NCBI GenBank assembly: GCA_009103225.1
Contig: RHPI01000249.1
Location: 246,348-310,347, forward strand
Length of the DNA stretch: 64,000 nucleotides
DNA from: Chlorokybus atmophyticus
Lineage: Eukaryota > Plantae > Mesostigma and Chlorokybus algae
Direction of reading: 5' to 3'
Position numbers and translations under genes: made by a program. The notes beneath the pieces were generated by a model. It had not been told where the DNA came from. It ran no database searches and was given only the letters and a program-made list of their open reading frames with translations. Position 1 is the stretch's first letter. Each line of letters opens with the position of its first letter. Positions 11,627 through 35,033 of the stretch are shown here, piece after piece.

Positions 11627-12589
11627 GTCTGAACACAGCAATACAGCTTGTAAGAACAAAGCTGTATAAGCAAAAAGAGTTGTGCAAGCAAGGCTTGCAA
11701 CAACAACAAACAACAAGTCTTATGCCTTGGGCTGCTCGTGTTGTAAAACCACTCATTGAGTGTAATGCCACTTTAAAAAATGATGTTAACGTGTGAGTGA
11801 GTGCTGTCACTTATTGCAATGCAAAGTAAAGCAACTTAATGATTAAATGCTTTATTGCAGCGCAGAGGAATATCCAAGAGGCTCCCTCAATTAATGAGAG
11901 GATTATCTCGAGAGGCTCTCTTTGCTATTGATTGTGCACAAATACGCACACAATGCACGCGAGCCACCAAACACTCACGCACATCCACCTCTCTACAAGG
12001 AAGAGGGGCCAGATGAGCACAAAACAACCTATACAAGCTAACTATTTACTTGCTTAGGTTGAAAGTCTGGTTGGTCGCGGCGACTTGCTAGGCTTTGGTT
12101 GCCGCTGGCCTGGCTGCGGTCGACCGCAAGGGGCAGGAAATGACGCGCGAGGCAGTCAGTCTGACGGCCGATACAATGGTACCTGCTGCAACGCAGGTTG
12201 CGTCGCAGGAGGTTGCGCAGTAGGTGGCTTGCCAGGCTTTTGGCCTGAAGGATGTGAACGGCGGCGCTGCTAGCGGCCTGGTGGCTGTGAACGGCGGCGT
12301 TGCTCTACCACAATAAATAACCACAATAACACAATCAGGCCCACCCACAAAGAGGACCGTGCTCCGATACCAAATGTGAAGGGAGAAATGCCAACTCTGT
12401 TTCAGCCCACTCGACCACAAAAGACTTGGTGCTTTTATGGTCGATTTGTGGTAATTTAATCGTCGCAATATGTTTTCCCTGCCGGCCGACTAAATATTAG
12501 CAACGGCCGTGCATCTGAGGACATTAATTTAGACTGTCGTGGCTCAGGCCACCTGTAATTTTGATACAGGGACCTAATAGTTACTTCCG

Positions 12590-12930
12590 TTACTGTCAGG
12601 CCCTTTTTGTTACAATTCAGACTTTAACAGTTGACTATGCATAACTAACAGGCGCCTGTTAGTTACCTGTCAGGCGTTAACAGGTGACTTTATATAATTA
12701 ACAGGCACTTGTTGGTCACACACCAGGCCTCAACAAATGACTTTGTGTAATTTACAGGCAACTGTTAGTTACACATCAGGTCTTATTAAGTGACTACAAC
12801 TAACCAACGGGCACCTGTAAGTTACACATTAGTCTTACTTAGGTGACTTAGCCTATGTGACAGGCACGTGCAGGTTACACACCAGTCCAGCGCAGGCGAC
12901 CAAGCCTAATTAACAAGCACCAACTAGGTA
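12590..12930. repeat. Left subterminal repeat array of the transposon
   Basis: Repeated TAACAGGCRC-like units, including the perfect 24-bp palindrome taactaacaggcgcctgttagtta at 12642-12665. Confidence 0.7.
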
Positions 12931-13281
12931 ATTATCAACAAAATAATGCATTCCTTAACAACTGAAGGTGATTAATGCCTAATTGTCGTCATATGTATTT
13001 GCATAGCTTGACTACACGCGATTGTCACTGACTTCCAGCATTGTTATGTGCCTGTGCTGTGTACATGTACCTGAAATGTGTACAGTGTCTCTCAGTCACT
13101 TGCCAAGGCTTGTAGTTCGATTATGTGACTCGAATGCAGTTCTGTTGTATATCATAGGGATGCAAGTATTGATGTGCATGAGCATAATGACGATTGACTA
13201 AGCTGGTTTAAGATGCACAACACTCAGTCACAAGAGCCTTGTAGCTATGTACACTACCAGCTAAACGGACTACCAACTGCG

Positions 13282-15109
13282 CTACAGCTCCTCTCCATCA
13301 TCGCTGGTCTCGTCATTACGGAACAAAGCACCACGCGCTGGGGCCTGTGGAGGAGACGCCGGAGCTTGCTCTTCCTCCTCAAACGGTTGTGCCAGCCAAT
13401 CAAATGCCGCTTCTGCCTCAGCGAGCGGGTCACGAGCTGCTGTCTCTTGCGGCCGGCGCCGATTGGGATCTTTCAGGTATTCGACACAAGATGCAGTGCG
13501 GCGTTTCACAAGGGTGAATGGCTGGAGGGCTGCGTACCGTTGCCTCATCTCCCGCTTCATTGACATGATCATGGTGTTGATTTCGCTGAGGTACTCTTCA
13601 TGTGTGTCTATGCTGGCAGCTAGGAGAGGGTCTCCATCCTTGCCCTTTAGGATGCGCTCCACCTGCGTAGTTTACAGGCATGTCTTAGTGGCATCGAAAG
13701 CCACTATTCACTGCAACGCGTCTGCAAGCCTGTAGTTTGGGGCTACAGCATTCCTGAATTGCTAATGATGGAGTTCAGAGTGCTCACCGTAAGCAACAGG
13801 TATGCGAGGTGGTTGACTGTCAGCTGCCGGCGACCAGGTGTAGTGACGGCGTAAGACCAGCATTGCACGATCATTTGCCAGATTATGGGATTGCCCCATT
13901 CATGGATGTATCTCCTCCGCTCCGGGTCTGCAGTGTCGGTCACCTCAAATCTCCGCCATGACTTGTCTGCGACAGTCATACCGACAAGGCATTAGTCACG
14001 AAATAGATAGTTCAAGTTGAGCCTGCACCAGGCTAGAATAGTGCCTGTGACTTACTTTGGAGCGCGTTGCGCATCTGGGCTTTTTGGGTCTCGGGGTCCA
14101 TTAGGGCGTCGATGTGCCTGATTGAATCGGTTACAATAGGCGAGATGAGTACGTGTGTATGGAGGCTGAGTAAGAAGGCAGTGTTGCATAGCAGACATGG
14201 TGGTGAGGGACCCAACTCACTTGCGCTTGTTGCTGTTAAACAGTGTCCACTTGTACTCCTTCTCAAGGACATGCTTGATCTTGGTGACGTTCTCAGACCG
14301 GACCTGCGTAGCTTTCTTCAGGGCGACACTCCAGTGGAAGGGGCACTCCTTGGGAGTCCAGTACACCTCATAGAACTTGGCCGCATCGGCCTCGTCGTCA
14401 TGGTCGAAGCCAACTACCTGTCACGGGCAGGTTGGTCAGTGTCACGGTGCAGTGCGGTCATGAAGCATTAACAGCACCTGACACATGACGTTACGAATAG
14501 TGTCCTCCTTGGGATAAACGTGGCTCTCTACCCAGTGGCCGTTTATGATTTCAGCGACGGCATCTCGCAAATGCTGTCCACAGAAGAACAATCCGTTACA
14601 CACATACACACAGTGTCACAGTGTCACACAGTGCGTACCTCGTTGCCAACCTTCCACTTGCTTGGGGAAGGGTTGCTGACGGCCGAGGTTGCCACGTCAC
14701 GGCCAAATGCGTTTGGGTTTGGGGTTCCAATCGACCCTCTGCAAGCACAACCACATGAGTCATGCTGCCAGCCATGAAAGATGCAACCCTCGCAGTTGCA
14801 AAAGAAGAACAACGTGCACAGTGTATCCAGAACGCATGCAGTGAGTCACTGTGCTAGTCATGATAGAAGCAAGCATCCAAGTTAGAAGTTGAGCAAGAAG
14901 AAACGTGCACAGTGCATCAAGAACGCATGCAGTCTAGCTTGCCCTTGCGACTGCGGTGTCAGGTGGAGTTGTTGTGATGTGCTGGGCGTTAGCGCGGGGT
15001 CTTGCTGCAATTGGTTGGCGACGGTTGCCTGGTTGAACACTGGGGGCAATGTGGACAACTGGCGCCGACCTCCACGACGAGGTGCACTTACGGATGGACC
15101 ACGAGGCAT
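13282..15109 (-). pseudogene. Transposon cargo gene A, spliced, unknown function
   Basis: GT-AG exons (e.g. 14478-14573 and 14221-14417) splice to HLRDAVAEIINGHWVESHVYPKEDTIRNVMCQVVGFDHDDEADAAKFYEVYW...WGNPIIWQMIVQCW...NHLAYLLLTVERILKGK... One in-frame TAA at 13992-13994. Confidence 0.65.
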
Positions 15110-15414
15110 CTCTCCAACTGATAGTCGGGTGCCGCCTGTTTAGCTGTAAGTGGCGCTGCCGCCTCCAACGCTGCCGCCGCCGGTTGGCCCGCCCGAATGT
15201 ATGAGGCGCGAAAACGAAAATGAGGCGGTTTTGAACGTCTAGAGTCCCGCACTAGAGTCGCACTTGTAGTGCGTCCTTGCTCCTATGGTTGATGGTACGA
15301 CTTATGCATTCGTGCCATGCATGCTTCGTACAACCATTGTTACCAATGGTTGTGTCGTAACATTTATGGTACGACAGAGGCATCTCCCGTCCAACCCCAG
15401 CGATTGCCGTACAA

Positions 15415-15450
15415 TGGCTCTGTCGTACCATTCATGGTACGACAGAGCCA
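15415..15450. promoter_or_regulatory. Palindromic GTACCAT-N2-ATGGTAC site (17-bp arms) between divergent cargo genes
   Basis: tggctctgtcgtaccat-tc-atggtacgacagagcca; more half-sites lie at 15290-15380. Confidence 0.55.
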
Positions 15451-15499
15451 GGCATTGCTCGATCAGCCCAAATGGGAGTTAGCATGCACTCACCCAAAC

Positions 15500-15930
15500 A
15501 CGCTTCATTGATGGCCGGATGATGGCACGCAGGGGCACCAGGTCGATGACCGGTCGAATGTCAGGCTTGATGGGCCTGGGTTCGACTAGGAGGCGGAGGA
15601 CCAGGAGTCGGAGGAGGCGGCGGCGGCGGCGGCGTGGCACATCTTGCGAGAAGTTGTGGTCGTAAGAGTTCAAGCAGCGAAGCCAGCTACTACCGGTCGC
15701 CACGTCATGGATCATGGCAGGCGTCAGCAATGGGGCTGTCCAACATGCATCACCAACATTGGACAAACCAGCAGGCAAGCCATTAAAGACCATCTTCACA
15801 CAGAGAGCTGCTTGGTGGCTCGCTTTCTGCAACAGGGAGTGGATCAGGAGCTGCAGTCCTTGGAGCCCCTTGTCAGAACCATGCGGGACCAGTTGCGGCT
15901 GTGGGAACAAGCACAAAGGAATGCAGAGGT
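15500..15930 (+). pseudogene. Cargo exon with acidic N-terminus and zinc-finger-like motif, probably the 5' part of the OTU gene
   Basis: Reads WGCPTC...QAIKDHLHTESC, with an in-frame TAG at 15587-15589 and a GT donor near 15930. Confidence 0.45.
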
Positions 15931-16968
15931 ACGCTCAACAGTCACATGCATTTCCTTGCAAGAGCAATTTGTTTTTTAGCGCAGTCCATGTGATATATGT
16001 AGCGTGGCTGCAGGCCTCCACTATTCACCCATACCCACCCTACAGTCAAGCCGACATTGCGGAAGCAAGAGCAGATAGACAGAGCTGGGCGGCGGTATGT
16101 TGTTGCCAATCTCGCTGTGCATGTTGACTGCAATGTCGGCTCCAATGCATGCCTACCTTTCCATGCTAGGATGTGCGTGAGCGTGCGAAGTCGCGCGCGC
16201 GTGCCGAACGAAGTAGGCTGGGTTTGAGCACATGAGCGCGTGGCCATTCGTCCGGCATTCAACCAATAGTGCATCAACCAGCAATGACGCAGTCCATGCA
16301 ATTATTCGTGCATCAACCAGCAATGCCGCAGGTGACTGTTCGAAGCAACCAACTGATGACGGTGTGACGCAGTTGACTATTGCAATTGCAGTGTCGCAAG
16401 CATGCAGCTAACCCACATGTGATTGGTTGACAGCACCACAGTGCACTAAGTCCTGTTGGAGCTCCTATGCAAGCCTGGATTCAATCCCATCAACTGGTCC
16501 TTCAATCCCACTTGCTGATGGGCGCGGCGGCAATGCGGCATCAGTTTAACATGCATGTTGGCCTGTTGAATCCCGACATGTCCATTGGGGCAGTGGCGCA
16601 TGATGTGCCCATGGCTCAAGAGCTCCGTGACGAGTCTGCCATGGAGGGTGGCGGGGAGAGTGCAGCCAATACCACCTTGTCAGCCCCCATGGCTTCCCCT
16701 GCTCCATGCAGCCCACGGGCCATTGAGGTAAGTCGCTGTCTTTTATGCTCGTGCCTTGGTAACAATGCGTCAGGCACTGCATAAGCTTATATTCGTCCTT
16801 TGCAACATTGTGAGCCATCTTATCCTGGGTCCTGTATACAGCCCCCCTTGCTGCATGCACAAGTGGTCTCACCTGCAGCTCCTGCTCCCCTCCCAGCCAG
16901 AGCGCAACCACCTTCCGCGGCACCAGTCCTTCATGCACTGCCATCTCCTCCACGAGCAGCACCGGTGA

Positions 16969-18489
16969 TTGCGGGGCAACAATCCTTCTTGCCGCCACCG
17001 GCGAGACCACAGCACAATGCAACAACCGATGTGGCTTCTGCACCTACCTTACCCCACCCGCTGCAAGTTGAAGCCGGCAGTCTGCCCCAAACTCAGGTAC
17101 TTTATCAGTCACTGTGACTCTTGCCGTCCACAGTTGGACACACCATGTGAGTGCTGTATGCGCATGCAGCAGGGGTCACCAACTGCCAGCGAGTCATCAG
17201 AGGAGCTGGCCGCAACCCGCATACTGCCATCAGTCATGCTAGGTGGCCAGCTCGCCTCATGGGACCACTTCAATGCGCCAACGGATGGTAACTGCTTCTA
17301 CCATTGTGTATTTCGCGCCAGGCCATCCATAGCGCAAAGTGTCCTGGATGATCACAAGTGCCCCAGCTCGAGCAGATTTTGGGCCATGCTGGACACCATG
17401 GACGACGACGGCAGGGGGCACACTCTCCGCAAAATCACCGCCAAGGCTGTCGATGCAGGCGTGGCGAGCAGAATCCTAGACTTCTGCAGAGCCACTGGTG
17501 CCGCGGGAGAGATGGCGCAGTATTACAACAAACTGCCTGCGACCATGTTGGCTGATGTCAACTACAACATTGACCTAGACATGGCCAAGGTGCGACAGAT
17601 CGTGCAAAGAAAAGATGTGTACGTCGAGCACCTGCAGATGACCATGTTTGCCAACAAGCTGGGCTTGTTGATTGGCTGCGTAACCGTTCAGCGCGAGCAT
17701 GGGGAGTGGGTGCCACGGCCCGGCAGCGCAGTTTGGGTTGGAAATAAAGAAGCCCCCAACTCAGTCCTGGTGGTGGGCAACACTGCTCCTGATGAGCCAG
17801 AAGCACACTTTTGGCTCCTCAAGCCTGCAAGCACCGAACAGTGGTCGTGGCCTATGCATGAAGTGCCACCGGAGGTAACACACCTGATCGGAGAGTGGCG
17901 GAATGGCGTTGCCAATTCCCCGCTACCACCGGCTGTGACCCAGAGTGCTGCGCAAACGCCTCAGGCCTCGCCTTCGTGTGCTAGGCAAAAAGTAGCCGAG
18001 TGTTCTGCACATCCTGCCTCCCCTCAACCACAGCCACATGCTCGCAATCCCAATTCAGCACCCTCCCTTCCTGCCGCGGAGACTCACTTGCCACCGCACT
18101 CTGACCATCCGGAGGCATCTCCATCAAGAAGCAGCTGTAGCTCGCCCTCTCCCTCTAAGCTTGCCACATTGATCCCAGCCTGTCTTGTTGGTAAAGAGAT
18201 TGATCGAGATGTCCTGAAAGCTGCGCTGAAAGACAAAGGCTTCATGCTCGATCTCATGAAGCAACATGAGGTCGTGGAGGAACGGGAGGCAACCAACAAG
18301 CGCAAGGCTGTGGAGCAAGAAGATAACGCCTTACCTCCTCTGAGTGACAGAGCCACGGAGAGCGCCTGCCAGGATGTGCAGGGTGACAAAAAGAAGAAGA
18401 AGAAGGTTGTTAGAACAAAGGACGCTGACAGGACCAAAAAAGGAAAGGTGAGGCATCGTTACAACATTAGAAGAAGCACAGCGCCTTGA
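16969..18489 (+). CDS. OTU-like cysteine protease (deubiquitinase) ORF with basic, NLS-like C-terminus; transposon cargo
   Basis: Catalytic Cys motif APTDGNCFYHCVF, followed by LRKI, VEHLQMTMFANKL and the His motif EAHFWLLKP; a KKKKK tract near the end. 506 codons are open, but the true start is probably in upstream exons. Confidence 0.7.
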   Translation: MRGNNPSCRHRRDHSTMQQPMWLLHLPYPTRCKLKPAVCPKLRYFISHCDSCRPQLDTPCECCMRMQQGSPTASESSEELAATRILPSVMLGGQLASWDHFNAPTDGNCFYHCVFRARPSIAQSVLDDHKCPSSSRFWAMLDTMDDDGRGHTLRKITAKAVDAGVASRILDFCRATGAAGEMAQYYNKLPATMLADVNYNIDLDMAKVRQIVQRKDVYVEHLQMTMFANKLGLLIGCVTVQREHGEWVPRPGSAVWVGNKEAPNSVLVVGNTAPDEPEAHFWLLKPASTEQWSWPMHEVPPEVTHLIGEWRNGVANSPLPPAVTQSAAQTPQASPSCARQKVAECSAHPASPQPQPHARNPNSAPSLPAAETHLPPHSDHPEASPSRSSCSSPSPSKLATLIPACLVGKEIDRDVLKAALKDKGFMLDLMKQHEVVEEREATNKRKAVEQEDNALPPLSDRATESACQDVQGDKKKKKKVVRTKDADRTKKGKVRHRYNIRRSTAP

Positions 18490-18547
18490 AGCCTCACTGA
18501 GGCTGACTGTGTGTCCTGAGTAGGCACAGGCGGGATTATAGCGTCAA

Positions 18548-19781
18548 GTGGCTGCTCAGCATCGTCCAGAGAGACAGCCGGTGCGGCACGAGCTGCCTAA
18601 GCTCAAAGCACCGACGCGCAGACGCTTTGAGGGGCTGACTCGTAGTGCAAAGGAGTTAATTACCCTACAGTACGTCCAAGACGCGCTGCATCACCGCATG
18701 CGGCATGCCTCGAGGTGGGTGACGAAAGTTTGCAATAAGTGGGAGCAAACGCGGAGAATGCGGTCTAAACAGACCTCTGGGGATTGGCCGTGGTTGGAAC
18801 CCATACACGATATGGCCATCCGTAGTACGTTGTTGCCCCTCGCCGTCCTCGATATGATGGTGTTGTTGCTGCCGCAGNAAAGGAGTTACCCTACAGTACG
18901 CCCAAGACGCGCTGCATCACCGCATGCGGCATGCCTCGAGGTGGGTGACGAAAGTTTGCAATAAGTGGGAGCAAACGCGGAGAATGCGGTCTAAACAGAC
19001 CTCTGGGGATTGGCCGTGGTTGGAACCCATACACGATATGGCCATCCGTAGTACGTTGTTGCCCCTCGCCGTCCTCGATATGATGGTGTTGTTGCTGCCG
19101 CAGCAGCCCGGCAATGTGCAAGAGCTATCTGCGGAGCATTCGACCTGCTGCAGCAGATGTACCTGTCGATGTCGACTAATGCGGGTCGAGATGTGTGCCA
19201 CTACCTGAGCAAACATATTGGGTGGCAAGTAAAACCATTCGAGCTGTACTTGGCATGCTTTGGCTGGCAGTGGCTGTATGTCATACGGCACGTCGAGCTG
19301 ATTCTGTGGAAGCTCGAAGAAAATGACGATGCGGGGGAGTACACGAGTGACGACAGCCATGTCGAGGGCCTGGATGAACGCATGCTGGACGAGACCACCA
19401 AGACCAGCAGGTGGTGTATGGCGGCAGATGGGCGTCAGGTGATCGAGCAGGCAGTGGAGCGTTATGCTGCGCCATTTAGATGGGAGTCGTTATGCCTGCG
19501 ACACAATAAAAATGTTTGGTGGCAGAGGCAGCTTGCACACCCGCGTGCACTATATGTGCTGATTTGTCGCATTGAAGAGCCACCCCCCCCCAGCGGATGG
19601 GGAGACGCCCTGTTGCAAGAAAGCGATGTGCCATGTCTGCATCATAGCACATCAGAAGACTGTGGCAAATAAATCAAAGAATCTACAAGCGTGTCCATTC
19701 TGCAAGCAACCTCACCCGTTTTGGTCGCCACGCCTGATGCAAGACGCCAACGTGTCGGCGGTGATTTGGCCCCCGCCTTGA
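18548..19781 (+). pseudogene. Cargo gene C with C-terminal RING-like Cys cluster
   Basis: TPCCKKAMCHVCI...ACPFCKQP at 19572-19781. The upstream coding is frameshifted, and an assembly duplication sits at N 18878. Confidence 0.5.
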
Positions 19782-20103
19782 TGCCAATTGTGCATGTAGT
19801 GTAGTTCTGTGTTGGCTTCCTGTGAACCATGTAGGTACATGTATAGTTGCAGCATGGTGCATGGTGCACCAGAGATCTGCTGTTGTTAGAAGCATTGGCT
19901 GTACATGTGTATAATGACTGCCCGGCGCATGAGTCAGTGCAAGGCTTGCATACCTCGCTGGTTTAGAGCGTGGTTGACAGCAACAAACTCGGACAGCGCT
20001 CTGGGTTCCATGGCATGACAGCACAGTATTACTCTACGATCGTGATAGTATGCGAGTATCCTTGTAGTACCATTAACAGATGGAGTACCATTCATGTTGA
20101 TGT

Positions 20104-20121
20104 AGTACCATGCATGGTACT
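20104..20121. promoter_or_regulatory. Palindromic GTACCAT-N2-ATGGTAC site upstream of the Tudor-MTase gene
   Basis: agtaccat-gc-atggtact, with further gtaccat half-sites at 20067-20091. Telo-box-like tttagggtt/aaccctaaa motifs follow at 20169-20216. Confidence 0.45.
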
Positions 20122-20259
20122 GCAATAGCGTATAAGGTACAGTCGTGCTTCACTTGAAGTTTGACCCATTTAGGGTTCCTAAGCTGGCAACCCTAAATTG
20201 ATGCCCATACCCTAAAGTCTCGCTCAATTTGTGGGCAGCCGTGCCGATTCCTATTTTGC

Positions 20260-22003
20260 ATGATGTCGGCGGCAGCAGTTGAATCACCCTCACCTAGGAG
20301 ACCATGCTTGGTGTGCCCACAATGCAATGCGTACGTATGTGCCAATGGCCGTAGGCAGCAAATGCGAGCACACTTGACCGAATGCCAGCGAGTGCAGACA
20401 GTGTGCCACGGTTTTAGTGCTGCTTGCTAGCATCACACCACACACAATGTCGACGTGTTTGGCTGCCGCCTTGGCCAAGTGCTGTGCAAGAAACCCTAGT
20501 TTTTCCAGTGCGTGCAGTGCGTGTGCGAATCGTGCTCGCGCTCATGCTTCGAGTGGCGAGGGGAACCCATGCGCTTCTTCACATGGACAACACCGGGACA
20601 TGTGGTTAGTGGACAGGTGGTGGATGCTGTGGAGGTAATCCACAAGAGTGGACCGCGACGTATCACTGCATGTTATGTTGGGCGTATGCTTATTTCATGC
20701 ATGTTGAAGCTGTTGTCGCATTCAGAGCAGTCTTGCACGGTGTGGGCGTGGGCAGTTCCATCCCCTGGCCGCTGTAGAGGAGGCAGACCATCGACCGTTG
20801 GACACCGCACTGCATCGGCTGCGGAACGCAGTTAAGTTGAGATGCGAGCAGCTGATCGGTGTGAGTGTCATGGTGCATTGGCCGCTGGATGGGGAATGGT
20901 ATGCGGGCGTTGTGGAATCATTCAAGCAAGCGTCACGTCAGCATCGCTTCGTGGCGTGCGAGATTGAGGACGCATCATATATGCATGGTGCAATGAAAAA
21001 TGTCTTTGCAGGGCAGCACCGTATAGTATTCGATGACGGTGATCGACCACAAACCATCAACTTCAAAGGGCACAACATATTCGCGTACACATCAGTTGAC
21101 GGGGCACGCCATGTTCTGCGCGTCGGAGGGGAGAACGTCAGTCGCAAAGTAAGCCCGGACGGCATCATTGTTGGTCCCTGGCCAGCACCACGGCCAGCCT
21201 TGACCACATACACGCCATTTGACAACAAGGTGGGACGCACACGCAGACCAAGGGCCCTCGACCTATTCTGCGGCGGTGGCGGTGCCAGTGTCGGTCTATA
21301 CCACGCAGGCTTTGACGTGACCGGGATGGACATAAGTCCCTCCTCTGAGTACCCGCTGCCCTTCATACACCGCGATGTATGCACCTTGAGTGCAGGAGAG
21401 CTGAGCGAGTACAAGCTCATCTAGGCCAGTCCACCATGCCAGGCCTATTCAGGTGCTATCCCGGCACCTCAACGAACGGCACATGGCATATCCTAGAGAC
21501 ACCAGGATATGATACCGCTCGTCCGACGTCTGCTGCTTGCAAGCCAGGTCAAGTTTGTGATTGAGATCGTGCTAGGAGCAGCTTCCTCATTCAGACCCAA
21601 TCTGTCCCTTTGTGGCACGATGTTTGGCCTATCAACTTTCTGACACCGTCTGTTTGAGACACAGCCAGTGGTAGCTACCCCACCAGCACGCTGCTCGCAC
21701 GCGGGCAAGGCAGTTGGACTGCTATCGCCGCACCTGTCCGCTAGCGCGAAGAAGACAATCGTGACATCAAACGCGCCACAGCAGATGTACCCGGTCTATG
21801 GCCTTCCAAGCACCAGAGGCGGCATTGCTGCGTGGCAAACAGCGCTGGGAGTGCCATGGATGACCTCGGCCGTTTTCATAGCGAATGCAGTTTCTCCCGC
21901 AATGGCGGAGTGCATAGGGCGTCTCATGCTTGAGACAATATGCGCTGTGACTACCCTCCTGTGTCATGGAACTATGAGGCTTGAGTGTGGTGCACTGTAT
22001 TGA
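20260..22003 (+). pseudogene. Tudor-like domain fused to a C5-cytosine DNA methyltransferase (short phage/bacterial type); transposon cargo
   Basis: Removing intron 20937-21011 restores VHWPLDGEWYAGVVESFKQASRQHRIVFDDGD (Tudor-like). One frame then gives motif I LDLFCGGGGASVGL, motif II GMDI, motif IV I*ASPPCQAYS, a motif VI remnant FVIEIV, LCGTMFGL, motif VIII *HRLFE, and motifs IX/X ALGVPWMT..NAVSPAMAECIG. Stops lie at 21422, 21494 and 21641. The 5' exons are tentative. Confidence 0.85.
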
Positions 22004-22182
22004 TGCTTAATGCCACACGGCGGACTGATTGTTGAATGTTGCACATTCGATTGTGGTGACAGTTGTGCAGTGACAGCTGCCCGGTATTGTACATGTCCAC
22101 ATGCAAAAGTCTTGCCATACGATTAGCAATGCCTAACTGACTGGTATGCTCCAAACTCAGAGTAGTGAGACAAGTACATGTG

Positions 22183-25112
22183 TCACGTGGAAGTGCAGTG
22201 AACGTTCACCCAATACTTGCCCTCTTGTACACGGGCGCTGTCCTTGTCAAACATGGGGAGCAGCTGGATAATACTTTTTACTTGCTCCAGAGTCACGACA
22301 TCGAGATGTGGACCGCCATGACGCTTTTCCCATTTCAGAGCGATGCACTTTGTGTCGCTCGTCACATCCAGCTTCGTGTACCAGCGGACAAACACGACCT
22401 CCTTCCACACGCGCTCGCCGCTACCACCCCACACCACCACGCGCAGAAAAAGGAGTGCCTGAGCCCACCACGTCACGTTCACACCGTCCTCATCACCTTC
22501 CAACTCAAGTGTAGAGAACCAAGGCCGCCCATGGAACATCCCAGTTGCGCGCGCCATGCTGACTCCTGATGTCATGTACACCGCTGCGCCTCCGTTCACC
22601 ACGCAAACAGCACGCCACCCGTCGGCCAACTCCAATTGTTTCCTCCTCAACCAGCTGTCCAGGGTGGCAGGCAGCTTGTCGGCGAATGGAGTCTTCAAGG
22701 CGACTTGGCGGCTACGCGCAGATCCGCTCCAGTGCGGGCTGGACTCCCTCCTTGTCAGCACATCCATCCGTAGCAACTTGTCCGTCTTCTCCATGACATT
22801 ACAGCATTGCTGCTGCGCCTGCGCTATGACCGAGCGCATCTCGGGATCCACGACCATGCCATCCTCTCTCACATATTCCGCACAGCTCCATGCCTTCAGG
22901 ATACGAGCCTGGTAGTCCCGGTTGTTGCCACCACGCGCCCACCGTTTGATATTTTGGGCGTGCGTCTGCTCCATGCGGTTGGCGCTGAACCAATCTGGGT
23001 GTCCACTGCTGACAATTGCCGGCCCAAAATGAGTGAGCTGATGCATCTTCTCGATCTTCCAACCTGACTTCTGTACAGAATATGACGACAGTAGCGGATG
23101 CAACACTGCAGCTTTGAAGGCAGCCAGCTCGTTGTCGGCTGTGGTCAGGGTCTCTCTTGTGTGTTCATGCGCCTTCAGCAACTTCTTGTTCCACTGGGCA
23201 AGCGATGCGGCAGCAATGGTGAAGAAATCGTTGCCCTCACTGTCGAGCAGCAAACCGTCTGCGAGGACCGGCAGCTGCTGCAGCACCGCCACTTTCTCCA
23301 CCACCTGAAAGGAGTGGTCGGACAGGAAGAAATTTACTGTGCTTGTGGGTGCCTTGAAGTGCGAAACCCGCAGAGTCGCCTTGCATGCATTCAGCCTGTG
23401 CACATCTGCTCGTGAGCACGTGTTGTTGGCTTTTGTGTTCAACACAAAAGCAACACCAAAGACATGCCTGGCCTGCAGAATCTGTCTCGTGGATGGACGC
23501 ATTCGTTCCTTCACGGCGTCGTACACAGCAGCAAGCAGGTGGTCAATGATGCCTCCCAGCACATGCATTGCGTCAGGGGCAAGACGAGAGTAGCAGTCAG
23601 CTCCCGGCACCCGCGACTGTCGCCAACCCCACAGTGCATTCTGTTGCCAAACCACATTGCCTGGTTTCACGGAAAGCCATTCATCCTCACGAATGCCGAT
23701 AATTTAACCGTTACCTCCTCGACATGCATGGAGTGTTGCTCTTTGAAAGCCTTGGCTGTCTGGCGTGCATTCCTAACACCGCTATGCAGGTCCGCCCGCA
23801 GTTAACGTATTGCTGGTGTGTAGAAGGCCTCGGTTCTCAATTCCCAGTCCTCATCCATCTCCAACAGATCTGATTTGGTAACGAGACAAACATCGCAAGG
23901 ATGTCGTGTTTGGTTGCCCGACACAGTGCGTGCGAGTGTGGCAGGCTCCTACAACACGACAAACTCAGATGTTTTACTGACAACATCCTCCATGCACTGT
24001 TTGCTGGCAGGCTGCATCCGGTTACAACCATTCATGCCCACTACCTACAAATCGCTGATGTAGTTGGCAAGTGTGAGAAACACACGACGCTCGATGCCAT
24101 TCAGGTCGATGAGCTGCAGACCTTCCCAACTCGCCCGCTTCACATCCCCTAACACTACATTTAAAGCGTCATGAAAAATTTCACGTTTCCAAATGGAGAA
24201 CGATTCCTTGCCCTGCGCCCAGGTGGGTTGCCCGGCCACTGCGTGAACCACCGGCAGAAGCGCTATCATAACAACCCCCATGTTGCTAGCATACATGTCC
24301 CAGCTGTAGTTGGCAAGCGATGCCATCAGAGGGTAGCCAGAGCGCTTGCCCGCGCTGTCCAGCGTGGTCTTGTCACTGTACAGAATGGCAGGCGCCAAGT
24401 AGGACGCTTCCCCCACCTCTCTCCTCAAATCCACCTCCACATCCTTCCACCAATCGCCCGTGGAAGGATGGCCAAAGCTGTGCTCGTCACCAGTGTACTG
24501 GAGATTGAAGCCATTGGCGGCATGTGGATTGCCATACAACCGCGCGAGCCATACCTGCTCCGACCAAGAGCATTACTTACTATGCTGGCCTCAGAATAGA
24601 TACTGCATCGATACTGCATTAGGTACTGCATTTCACAGACCTTGGCCGGCATATATGTGACGCAGATGTCCTGATCCTCAGGGTCTCCAGGCTTGCACAG
24701 GTCAGCCGTTACGTAGTTCTGATACGGCAGCACACTCGCATGTGCATATGTGACATGGCTCTGATGGTTGAAGCACATGCACCGCACACCGTGAACACAC
24801 CTCAGACTGAGAGAAAGCAATCGTGGTCCGGAGGTAGCTGGCCGCATGCACACCGGTCTCCCACTGGAGCTCTTCCGTCAGGAAGTGTGCATTTCGGATG
24901 CACTTGATGATCCGCCCCATGTCGGAGGCCGACAGGCCTTGGCCGTTGTTGCACTGCACGAATGCCACTGCAAGAGCATGCTCCGAGCCATACCACCTGG
25001 ATTCCGACGCGTGCGAAGGGACGCCTCCACTTCCATGTTGGCGTGCCACAGGTTTCTCAGGCACACGCACACATCGAAAGCCCTCGTTCACTTCCTCCTC
25101 CTCCTGTTGCTG
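22183..25112 (-). pseudogene. Plavaka-type transposase with C-terminal BAH-like domain, spliced; 5' end in the N gap
   Basis: Motifs: HPSTGDWW, AILYSDKTTLDSAGKRSGYPLMASLAN, LANYISDL(*)E..RHPCDVCLV, LAPDAMHVLGG, KMHQLTH, WFSANRMEQTH, and C-terminal VFVRWY..DVVTLEQVKSIIQLLPMF..YWVN. GT-AG introns are present, and there is a TAG at 24045-24047. Confidence 0.85.
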
Positions 25113-25410
25113 NNNNNNNNNNNNNNNNNNNNNNNNNNNNNNNNNNNNNNNNNNNNNNNNNNNNNNNNNNNNNNNNNNNNNNNNNNNNNNNNNNNNNNNN
25201 NNNNNNNNNNNNNNNNNNNNNNNNNNNNNNNNNNNNNNNNNNNNNNNNNNNNNNNNNNNNNNNNNNNNNNNNNNNNNNNNNNNNNNNNNNNNNNNNNNNN
25301 NNNNNNNNNNNNNNNNNNNNNNNNNNNNNNNNNNNNNNNNNNNNNNNNNNNNNNNNNNNNNNNNNNNNNNNNNNNNNNNNNNNNNNNNNNNNNNNNNNNN
25401 NNNNNNNNNN
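25113..25410. other. Assembly gap (298 N)
   Basis: Read directly from the sequence. Confidence 1.
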
Positions 25411-25463
25411 ACCGCTACCGCTACCCTTGCATGCCAGAGGCGGGAAACTTGGCCGCCAGTCAC

Positions 25464-25642
25464 TGGCTCCGTCGTACCATTATAATGGTACGAACGAGCC
25501 ATTGCACGTCCAGGGTGAGTCTCTGGATATTTTTATATACATATATATACTGATTGAACCGTTTCAATGGTACGAAGATGCCTTTGCCAAAAGGTATAGG
25601 CATTGTACAAAGGTACCATTGAAATGGTACCTTTGTACAATG
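25464..25642. promoter_or_regulatory. Two palindromic GTACCAT-N4-ATGGTAC sites between the transposase and divergent gene E
   Basis: tggctccgtcgtaccat-tata-atggtacgaacgagcca (25464-25501) and a perfect 19-bp-arm inverted repeat at 25601-25642. Confidence 0.55.
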
Positions 25643-25823
25643 GCAATGACAGTTCGCACTATTGACAACTCTGGCAATGTCAGTCCCCCTGCGCATGAAA
25701 ACACCATTGATAGCTCCGCCAGGCTATGCCCTTACAGGGGCGTGATGCCGAGGGTATGTGGCGTTTGGAGAATCGTTGGCGGCGCTACCAGGGGCGTAGT
25801 GGGCATTGTAGTCGAGGTCCGGT

Positions 25824-26772
25824 ATGAATTCCATGTTCGCACAGGGCGGGCAGGGTGCCGGAGGGGTGTCCTCGGTGTCAAACCCCACCAAGACTACCAA
25901 GGGCACATCCAATGACAACAGTGACTCGGGCGATATCTTACAGGGCTCCCCCTCCGAGTGGGCAAAGGCACACCACAATACTGCCGCTAAGAAAATCCGA
26001 CCCACCAGCAGCTGCGACCACGGCGACATGATTGAAGGGACCAAACAAGACTGGCTTAACCAAGGTGGGTTCTTCGATGCACTGTCACGATGCACTGTCA
26101 ATGCCACATGCTAGGGTTCTTTTATCTTGCACATGCACAGCCTCAAGTATCTTGCACTTGACATACATTGTCAATACCACATGCACACCCACATGCACAA
26201 CCTCCAGTGTCATGCACATGAACAGCATGACCAATCTCGCAAATGCACAGCCTATTTCTACTTGCGGGAGCTCGCAAGTCGCAAAAGAGAAGCTGCGGAG
26301 TACCACGAACGGGTAATCCATGACCTAGTTTAATGTTTCCAGCGGTAATTAAGCAGTATGCTTGCAAATTGCCATGTTGGTCAGAGTGAACCAAGAGCAG
26401 CGCGGCAGGCTGACTGTCTGCCTGGCGGAGTGCAACAAAGCGGAAGACGAGGTAAGCGTGTGTATGCTGATGGGCTAGTCCTCTGGCAGCACGCCACTCT
26501 TACAGCATTATCAAATGCAGGTGGTCACTCTCAAAGCGACCATCAAGCGCATGCGCGTGCACGGCGAGGCGCTGACATTCAAGATGAAGGACGAAGTAGC
26601 CAGTGTACTATTAGCGAGCGAGGCAGCGGATGAAGATGACTCCGGCGTTGAAGCAGAAGACTCGTCGGAGGAGGAACATGAGGAGGGGGTTTGGAGAGGA
26701 GTTCTGAGGCAGGCATCACGGGTTGACAAGCTGCGCATGAGTCCAACAGCTAGACTCAATGTTATAGGGTAG
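25824..26772 (+). CDS. Cargo gene E, probably spliced, with acidic C-terminus; unknown function
   Basis: Exon-like ORFs ..GDILQGSPSEWAKAHHNT.., ..YFYLRELASRKREAAEYHER.. and QVVTLKATIKRMRVHGE..DEDDSGVEAEDSSEEE.., with plausible splice signals. The gene model is tentative. Confidence 0.4.
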
Positions 26773-26899
26773 TTTTATGCGCAAGTCAGCTGCTCAGTCA
26801 TACGTGGACATACTCTCACCACTGCCCGTACATTGTATATATTGTGGGCTTTTAGGTGCAAGACCAAACAATCAGTCCAAGGTTTGTACAAGCTGCATG

Positions 26900-27240
26900 G
26901 CATGTTAGTGTTGGCTTACGGCAAGAATTGCCAACTTTTGTCAAACGGCAAGGGTCACATATTAACAGCAGTGTAACGGCAAAGAAACTGCCGGCTATTG
27001 CTGTCAGCTGTCCGTAACTACCGGCTAACGGCCGTCTGTGCACATCAATCAAAGGGTAACTGGTTGACAACTCTTGGCCGGTTAGTGCCACTCACAACCA
27101 CTTTCGGCCCGCGGCCGTCTGCGTCAGTCCACTTAAGCCAACGGCAAACCCAACAGTCCAAAAGTAATATTTCAGGCATCGACAGGCAGGCTCAGGCAGG
27201 CTTAGGCACCGGTCAGTCCCTCAGTCCTTAGTCAGTCACC
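26900..27240. repeat. Right subterminal repeat array of the transposon
   Basis: About five AACGGCAA-like units plus short cagtc/aggc repeats close to the right end. Confidence 0.5.
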
Positions 27241-27275
27241 GTGTAAAATTTGCAATAATGTACCTTCCCGTTACA

Positions 27276-27649
27276 TTGCCCCCCACTTAAGAACGCTGAC
27301 GTCTTCGACAGCTGCGTATGCTTAGCTGGGGAAGTATCCCAGGGGTTTGTTGGGTCGGTCACCGGCCCCACGGTCAAGGACCGGCCAACTTAGGCCCATA
27401 CCGGTCAACGCGCGCATAGCACCGCTGCCGGCCCCACAGGTCGCATCGCGACAAGCAGGTCGCGTCCTGCCGCGTCAACTGAACATCGGCGCGACTGCCA
27501 TAAGGCAAGTCGCGACCCATTGATAATGGTACTTATAATGTGACCATGTACACTGGATTGAGAAACAGCGAGCGCGAAATTCGTGTGCAACTTGCAACTT
27601 GCAACTTGAAGGCAGGAATTGAACCTGGGTCTCAAGCTCCAATGACCAA
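27276..27649 (-). mobile_element. TRIM internal region (tandem unit sharing LTRs)
   Basis: Highly similar to 42141-42514; PPT at one end, PBS at the other, no ORF. Confidence 0.85.
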
Positions 27650-28137
27650 TGTCACAGATGCCGGCGTCGCCACCGACAACCCTTCAATCCTCTACCCCAA
27701 CACTCGACCACAAAAGACTTGGTGCTTTTATGGTCGATTTGTGGTAATTTAATGTAACTCCCCTTTCAATCCTCTACCCAACACCCATGCCAACGACCCT
27801 ACCCATGCCGCCGCCATGACTATCGTGTTAAGAACCCACGTTCCCCCATTCACTATCAGCCATACCTTTAACCAGTTTGGTTGATGTTAATCAATTAGGG
27901 TAAGAATCGTGGATATCACCCGTTGGGACTCATAACTTTAATAAGACTCATATAAGGGTCTTAATTAAGCATAGAGCGAGGAACCAATGGAGCTTGGCAT
28001 ATAATTGACCAATTAAGGTCATATAAAATGATGTCAAGGTGAAAACCTTAAATAAGGGAAAAGCCCTTGACAGGCAAGAAGCAACTTGAAGCAACGGATT
28101 AAGAAACCTCAACAAGGCCCATGTATAACCTACTTAC

Positions 28138-28470: not shown

Positions 28471-29444
28471 CTACCTTAAGCTTAATGCCGCCGACGCCAC
28501 CGACCACCTGCGCGGCCACGGCGCAGACCTCAACTTCAATAAGTCAAAACCTCAAATGTTGGGCTTTAAAAAGGGTTTAAGTTGATACGATGGTCCGCAA
28601 CCAAATGAAATGAATGAAATTGTCGTCGCCAAGGGCGAGCTCATGCGGTTGCCGGTACATGGATAGTATGCCTAACGCTAGCGGGCGTGTGTGTTAGGCA
28701 CAAAAATAAATGATGTTGCATTCTCAAGCGAAGTGTTTAAAACCGGCGATGTTAATATGATGTGTCTTATCAATCATCACGTCGTAACTTGGTACACGTA
28801 TCATGCATATAGTGCGATATGCAGCATGATTGACAAGATGTGGACATATATTAAAGACTTCAGTTCAAAATCCCATAGTCTATAGCACGGTGCTTATAAG
28901 GGCGGAATCTGGGGAAAGGGAAGAGAAGCAGGCAGTAATCATAAACCGATGTTTGTAAAACCACGAGGCTTAGTCAAGAGCATATATGTCACGCAAAGAA
29001 GGCCCGATTGCAGGTGTGTCTCGCAATTGGGGTGAGTACATCAAAGCGCGCAAGTGTGCGTTTGGGTGGAGCTGCAGGGCAGCATGCAGGGTTGGCAGCA
29101 GAGTGAAAGCAGTTGCGGAGTCCAAGTGCGAGAGTAGTGGTGGAGCCGCAGTGTGTAAGAAGGCAGCTGAGGGGGAAACAAACTAGGTGGTCCTTTTGTA
29201 CCAGCAAAAAGTAGTAGTCACTTAACAAGCTCTTGAACAAGAACACTTGGGGAAATGCACACAGCAGTCTCAATCATGCATTCGTGTGATTTTTTGCAAG
29301 CTTAGTAGAATGAGATTACGCACCACAAGCACCGATCTCGCACAATAAAAGTGTATGCCAGTTTAACATGCATGCATGCAGAAACAGGCAAGCATGATCA
29401 CCGTAAGACAGTAGAGAACCTCAACATAATGTACACACCATTAT

Positions 29445-29554
29445 TGTAACGATGCTCGTGCTCACATACTCAGCACACAAGTCATACAACACATGTGTGC
29501 ACACATGTGTTGTATGACTTGTGTGCTGAGTATGTGAGCACGAGCATCGTTACA
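29445..29554. repeat. Perfect 110-bp palindrome replacing the 5' LTR
   Basis: Two 55-bp arms with no spacer. The right arm equals the last 55 bp of the 3' LTR. Confidence 0.95.
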
Positions 29555-29629
29555 GTGGTATTGGAGCCCTTTGAGTGGTTGGCTTTCTTGTTTTAAGGGG
29601 ATATTGACTATCTCTTTGGTGTGTGAGGT

Positions 29630-30634
29630 ATGTTTTTGTTTATGGACGCTACCATGGATGATGCACGTGTTGTGGAGCTTCAGCAAGTGCTGGTGGCTGC
29701 TCATGAGGAGCTGCAACGTGTCCAAGCATCTGCCCAAGCTCAAGCGGCACAATTTCAACAAGCCATGGCGCAAGCTCGCGCGTCCGCGTCCATTACAGCT
29801 CCTGTGGTTGCTCCATCAGCCTCTCGTCATGTGAAGCTACTAAAACCAAAGTCATTCAAGGGTCAAAGGGACGGTGACTGTGTCGAGGAGTGGGTGTTTG
29901 ACGTTTCGACATGGTTGAAGCTCACCGAGGTACCCATACATCTCCGTGTCGATGTGGCTGCTACTTTCTTTGAGGGAGCTGCACTTGTGTGGTGGCGTCA
30001 TCGTTGTGCTCGTGTGGAAGCTGGTCTTGAGGTTCCTTTCACTACCGTGGCTGAGCTGGCTGCTGAGGTGAAGAAACAGTTCGTACCGGTGGAGAGTGTG
30101 AAGACGGCGCGCGACCAGCTCTCTACGCTTGTGCAATCGCAGTCCGTGATGGCCTATACCTCTGCGTTTCAGCGTCTTGTGCTCTCCGTACCCATGACTG
30201 AGGAGGAGCAGCTAGACCGCTACACGCGCGGGTTGAAGACTCTTTGTCGCAAGGAAGTTGATCTTCGTGACGCGAAGACTCTCGCGGAGGCCATTCGCAT
30301 CGCCGAGCGTACAGACGTGTTGTACTTCAAGGGGACTGCCAAATACGCTGATCGTGGACACTTCAATCAGTTTCGTGGAGGTTCGTATCGCTCGTACGCA
30401 TCTGTTGGGGCTGGTTCGGGAGCTGTAGCAGCTCATGGGGCTGGCTCGGGGCCAATTCCAATGGAGTTGGGTGCTCTCCATGTCTCCAAGAAGGGGACAA
30501 GGGGTCGAGAAGATTCCAAGGCAGTTTGGAAGTGTTGGGAGTGCTGTTCCGCTGATCATGTGCGCTCTAGCTCCCCATCTTCAAAGCAAAGTCTGCTGCA
30601 CATGCCCGCAACGCTCGCGGCGGTGGACGCGTGA
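29630..30634 (+). CDS. gag: Retrotransposon Gag (zinc knuckle degenerate)
   Basis: KPKSFKG..VEEWVF, ARDQLSTLVQ..VMAYTSAF, GPIPMELG and CWECCSADH. Confidence 0.85.
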   Translation: MFLFMDATMDDARVVELQQVLVAAHEELQRVQASAQAQAAQFQQAMAQARASASITAPVVAPSASRHVKLLKPKSFKGQRDGDCVEEWVFDVSTWLKLTEVPIHLRVDVAATFFEGAALVWWRHRCARVEAGLEVPFTTVAELAAEVKKQFVPVESVKTARDQLSTLVQSQSVMAYTSAFQRLVLSVPMTEEEQLDRYTRGLKTLCRKEVDLRDAKTLAEAIRIAERTDVLYFKGTAKYADRGHFNQFRGGSYRSYASVGAGSGAVAAHGAGSGPIPMELGALHVSKKGTRGREDSKAVWKCWECCSADHVRSSSPSSKQSLLHMPATLAAVDA

Positions 30635-30704
30635 ACATGGTGGAGGAGGATAGGTTACAGCTGGGAAACGGCTCACCTCAGTAGCTGAAGAGGCTCCTGC
30701 TGGG

Positions 30705-33700: not shown

Positions 33701-34376
33701 AAGTGCAAGCACGGGCGTGACACATTTCCTCATGAACTACGGGCAACATCCTTTGACGCCATTGACGGCGTGGGTGCCTAGCATGTAAAGCTCCAACGTG
33801 GAGGCCGTGGATGGCTTTCTTGTGAGGTGTGCAGACATTACCAAGGCAGCTCGTGAGGGTCTAATTACGGCATCAAACAGGCAAAAGCAATACGCCGATG
33901 CACATCGCAAGCATGTTATCTTTTCGGAGGGTGAGCGTGCGATGCTCTCTACGAAGCATGTGCAGCTGGTCACAGGTGTGCGCAAGCTGAGTGAGCGATG
34001 GTTGGGGCCTTTTAATGTAATCAAGGTCATCTCAGAGGTAGCGTACAAGTTGGAGCTGCCCGATACCATGCACGTGCACCCCGTTTTTCATGTCTCGCTC
34101 TTTAAAGCTTACAAGGGGGAGCCGCCACCTCACCCGCCTCCGGTTTTAGTTCGTGAGGGCCAAGCTGAGTGGGAGGTGGAGGTAATTGTCAAGGATAAGC
34201 TGGTGGGAGGTGTGCGCAAGTATTTGGTAAAGTGGCGCGGCTATCCCATGCACGAGGCAACGTACGAACCCAAGAAGAGTTTCGCCTACGCCGAACAGAT
34301 TTTGCAGGAGTACAAGGCCAAGGGAGGCACTCGTCAGCTTCGAGGGCGAAGCTTCCCCAGGGGGGAAGGGGTGTAA
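30705..34376 (+). pseudogene. pol: pol: protease, RT, RNase H, integrase and chromodomain; disrupted
   Basis: LVDCGANSNF, YLDD, CDASD, TDHSPL, LDFITGL, SDRDPRF, DGQTERAN and EWEVEVI..YLVKWRGY; stops and frameshifts separate the ORF pieces. Confidence 0.95.
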
Positions 34377-35033
34377 CAGCCTGGACCCTTTTCCATATTT
34401 TAGTGCATGTATAATATGTGTTTTACCCTTTTTGGGCTTAATAAAGGGTTTTGTAAGGCCTTATTGGGCCCTTCTGGCGCCGGCTCTACTGCAGCGCGCG
34501 ACTTCGCCTTCGCCAGCAGCTGCCAACCTGCGACGTGACTGCCGCGGCATGTGACGTCACACCTGACTAGACTGTGCCAGGTGACGCGGACTTCGCAGTC
34601 AGCTACCTGCTGTACAGTACCTTACAACGCGGAGTGCACAGTCAGCTGCCGCGTGAAAGGTACCCGACGCGAGGGGCAGCAGCCTGCACTTATACAGTCC
34701 TTTAGAGTTGGTAAATCATGAACAAAATGCCTGGTTATTAACCTGCTTAGTTTTGGTGCTGGTATAAATAGGAAAACCCTGTGTAATGCAACCAACTTTG
34801 CTTTCTGCTCTCTGCTGTGAGTATACTGGTGTATGCTTGAGAGAGGCGTGATCCAAGGCACACTGCTGCGTTCTTGCTTGGTGTGAGAAGTAGTAGTGTT
34901 CATGTGCGTGTGCGCGCTCAACGCATGCGTATGTGCGAGGGAAGGCAAGGTTCCGGTGTGAAGACTGTGCTCAGTGTGCACACATGTGTTGTATGACTTG
35001 TGTGCTGAGTATGTGAGCACGAGCATCGTTACA
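34372..35033 (+). repeat. 3' LTR (662 bp, TGTAAC...GTTACA)
   Basis: Follows the PPT and is followed by the target duplication. Confidence 0.93.

Follow-up and report, generated by a model that had tools for sequence, protein, structure and literature searches.

The window, a 64,000-nucleotide (nt) stretch of contig RHPI01000249.1 from the alga Chlorokybus atmophyticus, contains a Plavaka (CMCT) DNA transposon of 14.8 kb (∼12460–27260) that interrupts the long terminal repeat (LTR) of a small retroelement. Besides its transposase and several cargo genes, the transposon carries a gene for a short C5 cytosine methyltransferase that is probably fused in frame behind a Tudor domain (Table 1).

Translation of 20100–22200 places the C5 methylase motifs in a single frame in the order LDLFCGGGG, stop-ASPPCQAYS, FVIEIV, LCGTMFGL, stop-HRLFE, ALGVPWMT, and NAVSPAMAECIG. 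This agrees with an earlier note on this DNA, made from the letters alone, which had also reported three stop codons (placed here at 21422, 21494, and 21641) and the replacement of the expected ENV by EIV. The conserved motifs of C5 methylases include I (FxGxG), IV (PC), VI (ENV), VIII (RxR), and X. Motifs I, IV, and X are present in the window; motifs VI and VIII are damaged there and canonical in the majority letters of three sequencing runs (X1–X3, see below). Of 3338 candidate proteins, 1821 have E ≤ 0.001 (best, 3e-45) against the methylase with its stops written as X, so the likeness is not accidental, and PHROG 363 DNA methyltransferase matches it at E 3e-21. The methylase reaches 21.1 bits against the Pfam family DNA_methylase (PF00145), just below the cut-off of 22, and no Pfam Tudor family is found in the unspliced frame. 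Its relatives P0003, P0004, P0029, and P0040 pass the PF00145 cut-off, and P0001 and P0010 give no hit. A structure predicted from a 14-row alignment (predicted local distance difference test (pLDDT) 75.5, predicted template modelling score 0.77) has DNMT3B, a prophage methylase, and M.HaeIII as its top PDB matches, and the domain is thus predicted to adopt the C5 methylase fold. In this model, the target-recognition region of ∼45 residues is partly disordered.

Beginning at 20708, upstream of the methylase, the reading frame runs through putative intron 2 without a stop until 21422. The match of the unspliced stretch 20828–21091 to the Tudor domain of Arabidopsis RDM15/PDS5C (PDB 7DE9; E 6e-6) falls into two pieces (residues 5–42 on 8–45 and 63–74 on 41–52). 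The other eight PDB matches lie at E ∼1, and seven of them are 53BP1 Tudors. Splicing is unnecessary for this match because the frame is open through the intron, contrary to the earlier view that the Tudor-like domain is visible only after splicing; the identification as a Tudor itself is borne out by the match and by the cage residues and two aspartates that are kept. Deleting the 25 codons of 20937–21011 renders both alignment pieces collinear. In the RDM15 structure with monomethylated histone H3 lysine 4 (H3K4me1), Trp616, Tyr623, and Tyr641 form the aromatic cage, Asp643 and Asp645 select the monomethyl state, and Glu647 binds H3R2 (PMC8184781). In a count along the aligned residues, Trp, Tyr, Phe, Asp, and Asp of the window stand opposite the first five of these sites, and Pro stands opposite Glu647. 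The window Tudor thus resembles RDM15 in its cage and its two aspartates and differs in leaving the H3R2-binding glutamate unmatched; moreover, RDM15 is a host factor without a methylase domain (PMC8184781). By sequence match and cage, the Tudor appears to be a plant PDS5/MSH6-type reader. The second Tudor half alone has no PDB match, and a single-sequence structure prediction of the unspliced Tudor stretch reaches a pLDDT of 33.6. In a collection of 5.8 billion sequences, none of the 21 candidates for the Tudor stretch scored. Among the longer methylase relatives (6 of 4542), none carries a reader domain. Both are weak negatives. The likely first exon has no Pfam family. Within it, a WxG..TW stretch at 20548–20634 (+) has a weak likeness to the CBX7 chromodomain (E ∼1), and a second, decayed reader may possibly lie there.

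The limits and spread of the transposon were followed in four sequencing runs (X1–X4), which represent at most three samples from two studies, one possibly the source of the window. Contigs of X1, X2, and X3 connect 12456 to 27256, the uninterrupted form of the retroelement, and one X2 contig connects 12397 to the flank past the retroelement remainder. Because the left LTR part stops at 12460, the rest resumes at 27256, and run contigs join both, we conclude that the 14.8 kb was inserted into the LTR. The depth of X1–X3 contigs increases at the left end of the transposon, is flat over ∼12,400–27,700, methylase and transposase alike, and drops in the flanks. In X2 it is 115–331 inside (31 in the bin with the gap of undetermined bases (Ns)) and 5.06 and 3.17 in the outer bins, values that are summed contig depth and not equal to copy number. 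One X1 contig of 2521 nt covers 20631–23142 and with it the Tudor, the methylase, and the 3′ end of the transposase, and 1021 X2 contigs were placed on the element in four identity classes (273, 371, 250, and 127). The transposon is dispersed and multi-copy, with different flanks. The even depth over both genes, the shared contig, and the ends at ∼12459–12461 and ∼27257–27260, positions absent from the earlier note, uphold the linkage of the methylase to a Plavaka transposase within one element, as that note proposed.

The insert begins with ATCGTCGCAA, and with the run version of the right end this yields an 8-bp inverted core; the left end is complementary to the right end as it stands in the run contigs. 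At the right end, six X2 contigs read GACGATG after 27253 and then disagree with one another (agreement 0.5). The left end, ATCGTCGC, lacks its first C in the window and is compatible either with CATCG..CGATG ends and a small loss at the junction or with CG..CG ends. As target-site duplication, AT or TA is equally compatible with the split-LTR junction, and CG..CG ends would pair with AT. The CATCG..CGATG option is close to the ends of PlavakaB elements (CATCA..TGATG, with a 2–3 bp duplication; PMC12730594). A 53-nt exact direct repeat (12408 and 27701) could be taken for the transposon ends, but this reading was rejected because the repeat represents the LTR of the retroelement that the transposon interrupts. 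Just within the left end lie five diverged 53-nt tandem repeats (12602–12866) that resemble CACTA subterminal repeats. Contigs of X1–X3 skip an exact 218-nt duplication that spans an N at 18878 (18660–19103), which therefore probably reflects an assembly error.

The window copy is dead, and the family form was intact. Over 20230–22060, the same 29 substitutions and two insertions relative to the window appear in X1, X2, and X3; X4 has no contig placed there. Five of the substitutions convert stops to sense codons (three in the methylase and two upstream), and the run majority letters also restore ENV and the AG before the intron donor. It is these sense codons at all five stops, the ENV, and the better splice donor that indicate an intact family form. 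Ten protein-changing sites were compared with 164 homologues: at four, all in conserved columns, the run letters bring back the most frequent residue (N, in all 164; R, in 161; P, in 158; and W, in 75); at a fifth they do so in a variable column, and the remaining five tell nothing either way. The window also lacks 4 nt at 21937 relative to the runs, which shifts the frame of the methylase tail; in the other frame, the tail reads DYPPVSW (compare DYKPISY in P0001 and NYPPISY in P0010). The earlier note had rightly called the copy dead on the strength of the three stops and EIV, but its list of lesions lacked the two stops in the Cys-rich exon, the 4 nt missing at 21937, and the base changed before the donor. 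Compared with X2, the window copy has 184 C-to-T and G-to-A changes and 81 in the opposite direction, an excess that is the pattern expected of a methylated, decaying copy.

By similarity, the methylase does not appear to belong to the host DNMT families. Host DNMT1/2/3/5, CMT, and DRM-type proteins, with their companion domains (BAH, a chromodomain within the catalytic domain, PWWP/ADD, and SNF2), are absent among its best 120 matches and the six longer ones, and its identity to solved DNMT3 and DNMT1 structures is 12–17% (DNMT3, 12–15%). Phage records matching it number 306, of which 276 cover at least 80% of the query, with best identities of 36–39%. The best viral structure match is the C5 methylase of Pithovirus LCPAC201 (E 5e-15, 32% identity; next, 1e-7). 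The best-scoring relatives are longer than the window enzyme and have an insert in the target-recognition region, which is an MBD in P0001 and P0010 and a different insert in P0003 and its kin. The P0001 cluster includes the Klebsormidium nitens protein GAQ92615.1 (P0123). An alignment of eight long-insert proteins recovers a full-length member on L196 (E 3e-83), a contig from a giant-virus metagenome-assembled genome; the giant-virus label comes from the contig name, and a packaging-ATPase-like open reading frame (ORF) on it is weak (Pox_A32, E 0.09). GAQ92615.1, P0001, and P0010, annotated merely as MBD or hypothetical protein, have a viral-type C5 methylase with an MBD within the target-recognition region, a design that may read and write 5-methylcytosine (5mC) in one protein.

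Phylogenetic analysis points to the same relatives. A quick tree was built on 165 rows, namely the window, 132 fetched proteins, and 32 proteins of viral loci (one locus in three); it joins the window to giant-virus/Klebsormidium groups (Shimodaira–Hasegawa-like approximate likelihood ratio test, 98). A more careful tree, with 55 rows chosen from those of the quick tree plus six loci, places it in a clade with L196 and GAQ92615.1 (support 94/95, just below the tool's star threshold), the window being sister to the long-insert group (91/81). Both trees are unrooted, and their other rows are phage-type or unlabelled, with host DNMTs absent. The window methylase and the giant-virus/Klebsormidium subclade have in common the signature MYPVYG..RG, and between the window methylase and the relative nearest to it lie ∼0.9 changes per site. 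When viral contigs were scanned with P0029, P0010, and two transposase ORFs, no relative came up. Scanning with P0001 or P0012, like a metagenome scan, brought up phage-type enzymes only, with a PVYG-like motif at 3 of 195 loci and no member of the subclade. In Atlas, the Klebsormidium domain adjoins clusters of mostly tailed phages (scores 0.88–0.89), which we take as a lead only. The earlier proposal of a phage or bacterial rather than a DNMT origin therefore holds as to the non-host character of the enzyme, but its nearest relatives form a giant-virus/Klebsormidium clade nested among phage-type enzymes. Because this clade has giant-virus and Klebsormidium members, a giant virus is the likelier carrier. 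The simplest reading would be passage from phages to giant viruses to algal nuclei, a direction that we put forward as a proposal. The Klebsormidium relative, the plant-type Tudor, and the intron-rich genes nearby would fit a green-algal host.

Table 1. Features of the transposon and of the interrupted retroelement (window coordinates; a dot marks features without strand)
Feature	Position	Strand	Remarks
Left piece of split LTR of small TRIM-like (terminal-repeat retrotransposon in miniature) retroelement, outside transposon	12398..12460	+	Aligns to both LTRs of whole copy 42047–42596 up to the junction
Transposon left end	12459..12468	+	Ends located at ∼12459–12461; inverted-repeat core CGTCGCAA at 12461–12468
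Cargo gene A, several exons, limits approximate	13270..15200	-	Open stretches; within family contigs
ATGGTAC half-site cluster and one full palindrome (15425–15440)	15292..15440	.	Between divergent genes A and B
Cargo gene B, several exons, limits approximate	15479..19672	+	CxxC..H..C finger-like stretch; OTU-protease-like stretch, DGNC near 17280
Four ATGGTAC half-sites and one full palindrome (20105–20120)	20067..20120	.	140 nt upstream of first ATG of methylase gene
First exon (likely), Cys/His-rich N-terminal region	20260..20683	+	Two stops, sense codons in runs; join to Tudor exon putative
Putative intron 1, GT..AG, 94 nt	20684..20777	+	Placed by frame arithmetic alone; puts exon 1 in Tudor frame
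Exon, first half of Tudor	20778..20936	+	Trp, Tyr matching RDM15 Trp616, Tyr623
Putative intron 2, GT..AG, 75 nt, in frame, stop-free	20937..21011	+	25 codons, the exact gap in the RDM15 alignment; runs have AG before GT
Second half of Tudor and linker	21012..21244	+	FDDGD: Phe and two Asp matching RDM15 Tyr641, Asp643, Asp645
Short C5 cytosine methyltransferase domain, one exon	21245..21984	+	Three stops, EIV for ENV; shifted-frame tail ends at stop 21982–21984
Plavaka transposase gene, several exons	22183..25110	-	Pfam PF18759, E 4.8e-21 at 24048–24572; start in or beyond N gap 25113–25410
Five ATGGTAC half-sites and two full palindromes	25474..25630	.	Between transposase start and gene D
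Cargo gene D, short exons, acidic stretch, limits approximate	25650..26900	+	Open frames; no family found
Transposon right end	27250..27260	+	End located at ∼27257–27260; window after 27253 is AATAATG
Remainder of interrupted retroelement, outside transposon	27256..27755	+	82% mean column identity to copy 42040–42610

The transposase ends 200 nt past the methylase on the opposite strand, and its PF18759 match on the minus strand supports the convergent arrangement described in the earlier note. Its YSD, CxxC, D..H..H, and E motifs were seen by eye against a published description of the family (PMC12730594), and the Plavaka signature, a C(2)C and an H lying after the second D and before the E, is present as CDVC and DAMH..H. 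The genes of the element are preceded by palindromes of the form GTACCAT-N2–4-ATGGTAC. The palindrome has four matches in the 64 kb, all in the element upstream of gene starts, and none in 100 shuffles; 13 of the 26 ATGGTAC half-sites of the window lie within the three clusters. The cluster at 20067–20120 is likely a promoter element of the methylase gene, and a single regulator likely acts on all genes of the element via the palindromes. Among the other cargo, gene A has no Pfam family at curated level. Gene B contains an ORF of 506 codons (16969–18489, +) whose DGNC..H layout resembles an OTU protease; this likeness is weak, the best PDB match being the OTU-like stretch of a viral polymerase (E 0.22), and the gene has no Pfam family.

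Several systems contain one or another part of this assembly. Giant Plavaka elements of the red alga Bostrychia (17.4–19.1 kb) encode PAG2, in which an N6-adenine methylase (PF01555) is joined to a SET domain (bioRxiv 10.1101/2025.02.11.637652). Like the window element, they combine a Plavaka transposase, giant size, several accessory genes, and the pairing of a DNA methylase with a chromatin domain in one of them; the window enzyme, however, is of C5 type, its partner is a Tudor reader rather than a histone writer, and the remaining cargo is a different set. Fungal PlavakaB families, with the same transposase family and ends that may be similar, carry TET/JBP (PMC12730594), cargo that likewise acts on cytosine methylation but oxidises 5mC, whereas the window enzyme would write it. 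A C5 DNA methylase occurs with an EcoRII-like endonuclease in Mariner-1_OLpv, also a cut-and-paste transposon but of another superfamily and residing in a giant-virus genome; its pair resembles restriction-modification, and its methylase is a standard one of 344 amino acids without a chromatin reader (PMC3627910). The retrotransposon DNMTs of dinoflagellates and Klebsormidium (SymbioLINE-Dnmt, SymbioDIRS-Dnmt3, and KnitGypsy-Dnmt3; PMC5890265) are C5 methylases carried as nuclear cargo by transposable elements of algae, and self-methylation was proposed for them. They differ in belonging to retroelements and in being Dnmt3-type or orphan enzymes within Pol or ORF1, and the accessible text describes no reader fusion.

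A parallel for the fusion itself is N4CMT of bdelloid rotifers, a bacterial N4 methylase with a chromodomain (PMC8885841). There too, a foreign methylase is fused to a eukaryotic histone reader; N4CMT, however, is a host gene that acts against transposons, makes N4-methylcytosine, and reads a silent mark, whereas the window Tudor resembles a reader of an active mark. Reader domains on transposon proteins are common, chiefly PHD and Chromo (10.1101/2021.11.30.470311). Orphan DNMTs of viral origin, one of them in Acanthamoeba and close to Pithovirus, are generally described as lacking companion domains (PMC12344493), and ten orphan DNMTs are reported in viral inserts of Amoebidium (PMC11244446). 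On the enzyme side, PHROG 363 actinophage methylases (such as Mycobacterium phage Pukovnik gp82), A0A481Z4Z4 of Pithovirus LCPAC201, L196, and GAQ92615.1 share the motif order and compact size of the window methylase at 36–45% identity. The signatures LCGTMFGL..RHRLFE and MYPVYG..RG are shared by the short methylases of phages, giant viruses, and Klebsormidium and the window family. In the target-recognition region, a long insert or an MBD is present in the members from giant viruses and Klebsormidium, whereas the window enzyme has no insert there and a Tudor at its N-terminus. A search of the published literature, with Repbase, subscription journals, and bioRxiv supplements outside its coverage (among the latter Supplemental Table 6 of the Bostrychia preprint, a list of elements with methylases), found no reader-fused C5 methylase in a nuclear DNA transposon. 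As far as searched, then, each ingredient has precedent and the assembly apparently has none. The earlier note knew of no such combination in a cut-and-paste element; for the whole this stands, but a C5 methylase (Mariner-1_OLpv, PMC3627910) and an N6 methylase in a giant Plavaka were already published.

We conjecture that the Plavaka transposon carries a fusion that reads histones and writes DNA methylation, and that this fusion would methylate transcribed copies of the element itself, a reading to which we give an even chance. A virus-type C5 methylase would have been captured, with a giant virus as its likely carrier, and splicing likely joins it in frame to a plant-type Tudor. The spliced protein, with a finger-rich N-terminus, the Tudor, and the methylase, would be produced along with the transposase; since the palindromes stand before every gene start, the two would switch on together. 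The Tudor would bind methylated H3K4 (H3K4me1, by analogy with RDM15), and the methylase would put 5mC on nearby DNA. An active copy, being transcribed, would bear the mark that the Tudor reads, and 5mC on it would quieten the element once a burst is over or bring it into line with host methylation. Where the enzyme acts is likely set by chromatin, because its target-recognition region is minimal, its relatives carry an MBD or insert there, and the reader here is N-terminal.

Several points tell against self-directed methylation. The introns and the Tudor-methylase fusion are inferred from sequence, and a search of the published literature found no demonstrated activity for any member of the short methylase family. 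Because contigs collapse copies, the open majority form is evidence of a recent ancestor that was intact and not of an intact copy that still lives, and the context of the decay is not significant (CHG, with H for A, C, or T, 7 of 204 versus 12 of 809 other cytosines, p 0.08). The proline opposite Glu647 of RDM15 means that ligand specificity may differ. The argument made for self-methylation of retrotransposon cDNA (PMC5890265) transfers only partly, since a cut-and-paste element is already DNA when it moves. Finally, H3K4me1 may also be on host gene bodies, so no protein feature confines the enzyme to the element.

This last point leads to the alternative that the fused enzyme works in trans, its Tudor guiding it to H3K4me1 gene bodies genome-wide, where it would methylate a short motif and alter the host methylome, with indirect or no benefit to the element. 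The absence of any element-specific feature in the Tudor would fit such a role, as would the stand-alone nature of the phage relatives and the presence of H3K4me1 on active plant gene bodies, where it recruits the Tudors of MSH6 and RDM15/PDS5C (10.1101/2024.10.15.618488). We nevertheless consider it unlikely: a selfish element would presumably retain cargo more easily when the benefit is its own, and enrichment of H3K4me1 on gene bodies is reported absent in Chlamydomonas (10.1101/2024.10.15.618488). It is distinctly unlikely that a giant-virus methylase joined to a host active-mark reader supplied de novo 5mC to H3K4me1-marked DNA, host genes included, so that part of gene-body methylation would be transposon-written; such a route would follow the same logic as animal DNMT3 with PWWP. 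Direct control of transposition, in which methylation of the ends or of the GTAC palindromes would time production or binding of the transposase and the Tudor would be a mere tether, strikes us as quite improbable. The palindromes that precede each gene start do contain cytosines, both terminal repeats have CG sites (the right one decayed by C-to-T and G-to-A in the window), and PMC3627910 cites the control that end methylation exerts on bacterial transposases, but the palindromes may be transcription-factor sites and decay at the ends equally fits host silencing.

The methylase and the Tudor piece might also be passenger cargo, captured fragments without benefit or two genes merely sharing a frame, as an open frame can multiply unselected in a young burst. 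That the protein searches found no Tudor-fused homologue (weak negatives) and that intron 1 is a guess would suit this explanation, which we find improbable given that every catalytic motif is kept in the family form despite ∼0.9 changes per site, that the Tudor cage is kept and the frame is continuous from Tudor to methylase, and that the methylase gene shares its upstream palindromes with the transposase. Very improbable, lastly, is a chance neighbourhood of the transposase with an endogenous giant-virus fragment or a host DNMT gene. Giant-virus enzymes are indeed among the nearest relatives, but the sharp ends, the inverted-repeat core, the insertion in a retroelement LTR, and the uninterrupted form in three runs mark out a transposon; the introns, if real, and the absence of viral core genes among the ORFs examined also speak against this reading, as do the 12–15% identity to solved DNMT3 structures and the lack of a transposase relative in viral contigs.

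The 5mC-related cargo of DNA transposons known so far removes 5mC, as with TET/JBP in fungi and VANC in plants. The window element, if self-directed methylation is its true role, would write 5mC and aim it by a reader of an active mark. It would also trace, concretely, how orphan methylases come into eukaryotic chromatin: out of phages into giant viruses, and then into a nuclear transposon, where they would be fused to a host reader. Such a route was inferred from scattered orphan DNMTs, described as mostly without companion domains (PMC12344493). In one small protein, two matters become testable: the reason why transposons carry methylases, and the targets of the widespread short phage-type C5 enzymes. 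Moreover, a catalytic domain of ∼240 residues with a separable targeting module is a candidate compact epigenome editor.

Other elements accompany the transposon in the window. The whole copy of the TRIM-like retroelement (42047–42596, 550 nt) has LTRs of ∼80 nt that contain a hairpin and lies between two copies of CAAGG; for the interrupted element, there is no Rfam match. The whole copy is nested in a unit with 136-nt inverted arms (41916–42051 and 43086–43221) and a 184-nt inner inverted repeat. A Ty3/Gypsy integrase with a terminal PHD finger (Pfam E 4e-7) is encoded at 843–2690 (+), and a chromodomain Ty3/Gypsy element occupies 29439–35039, its left end containing a perfect 110-nt palindrome (29445–29554).

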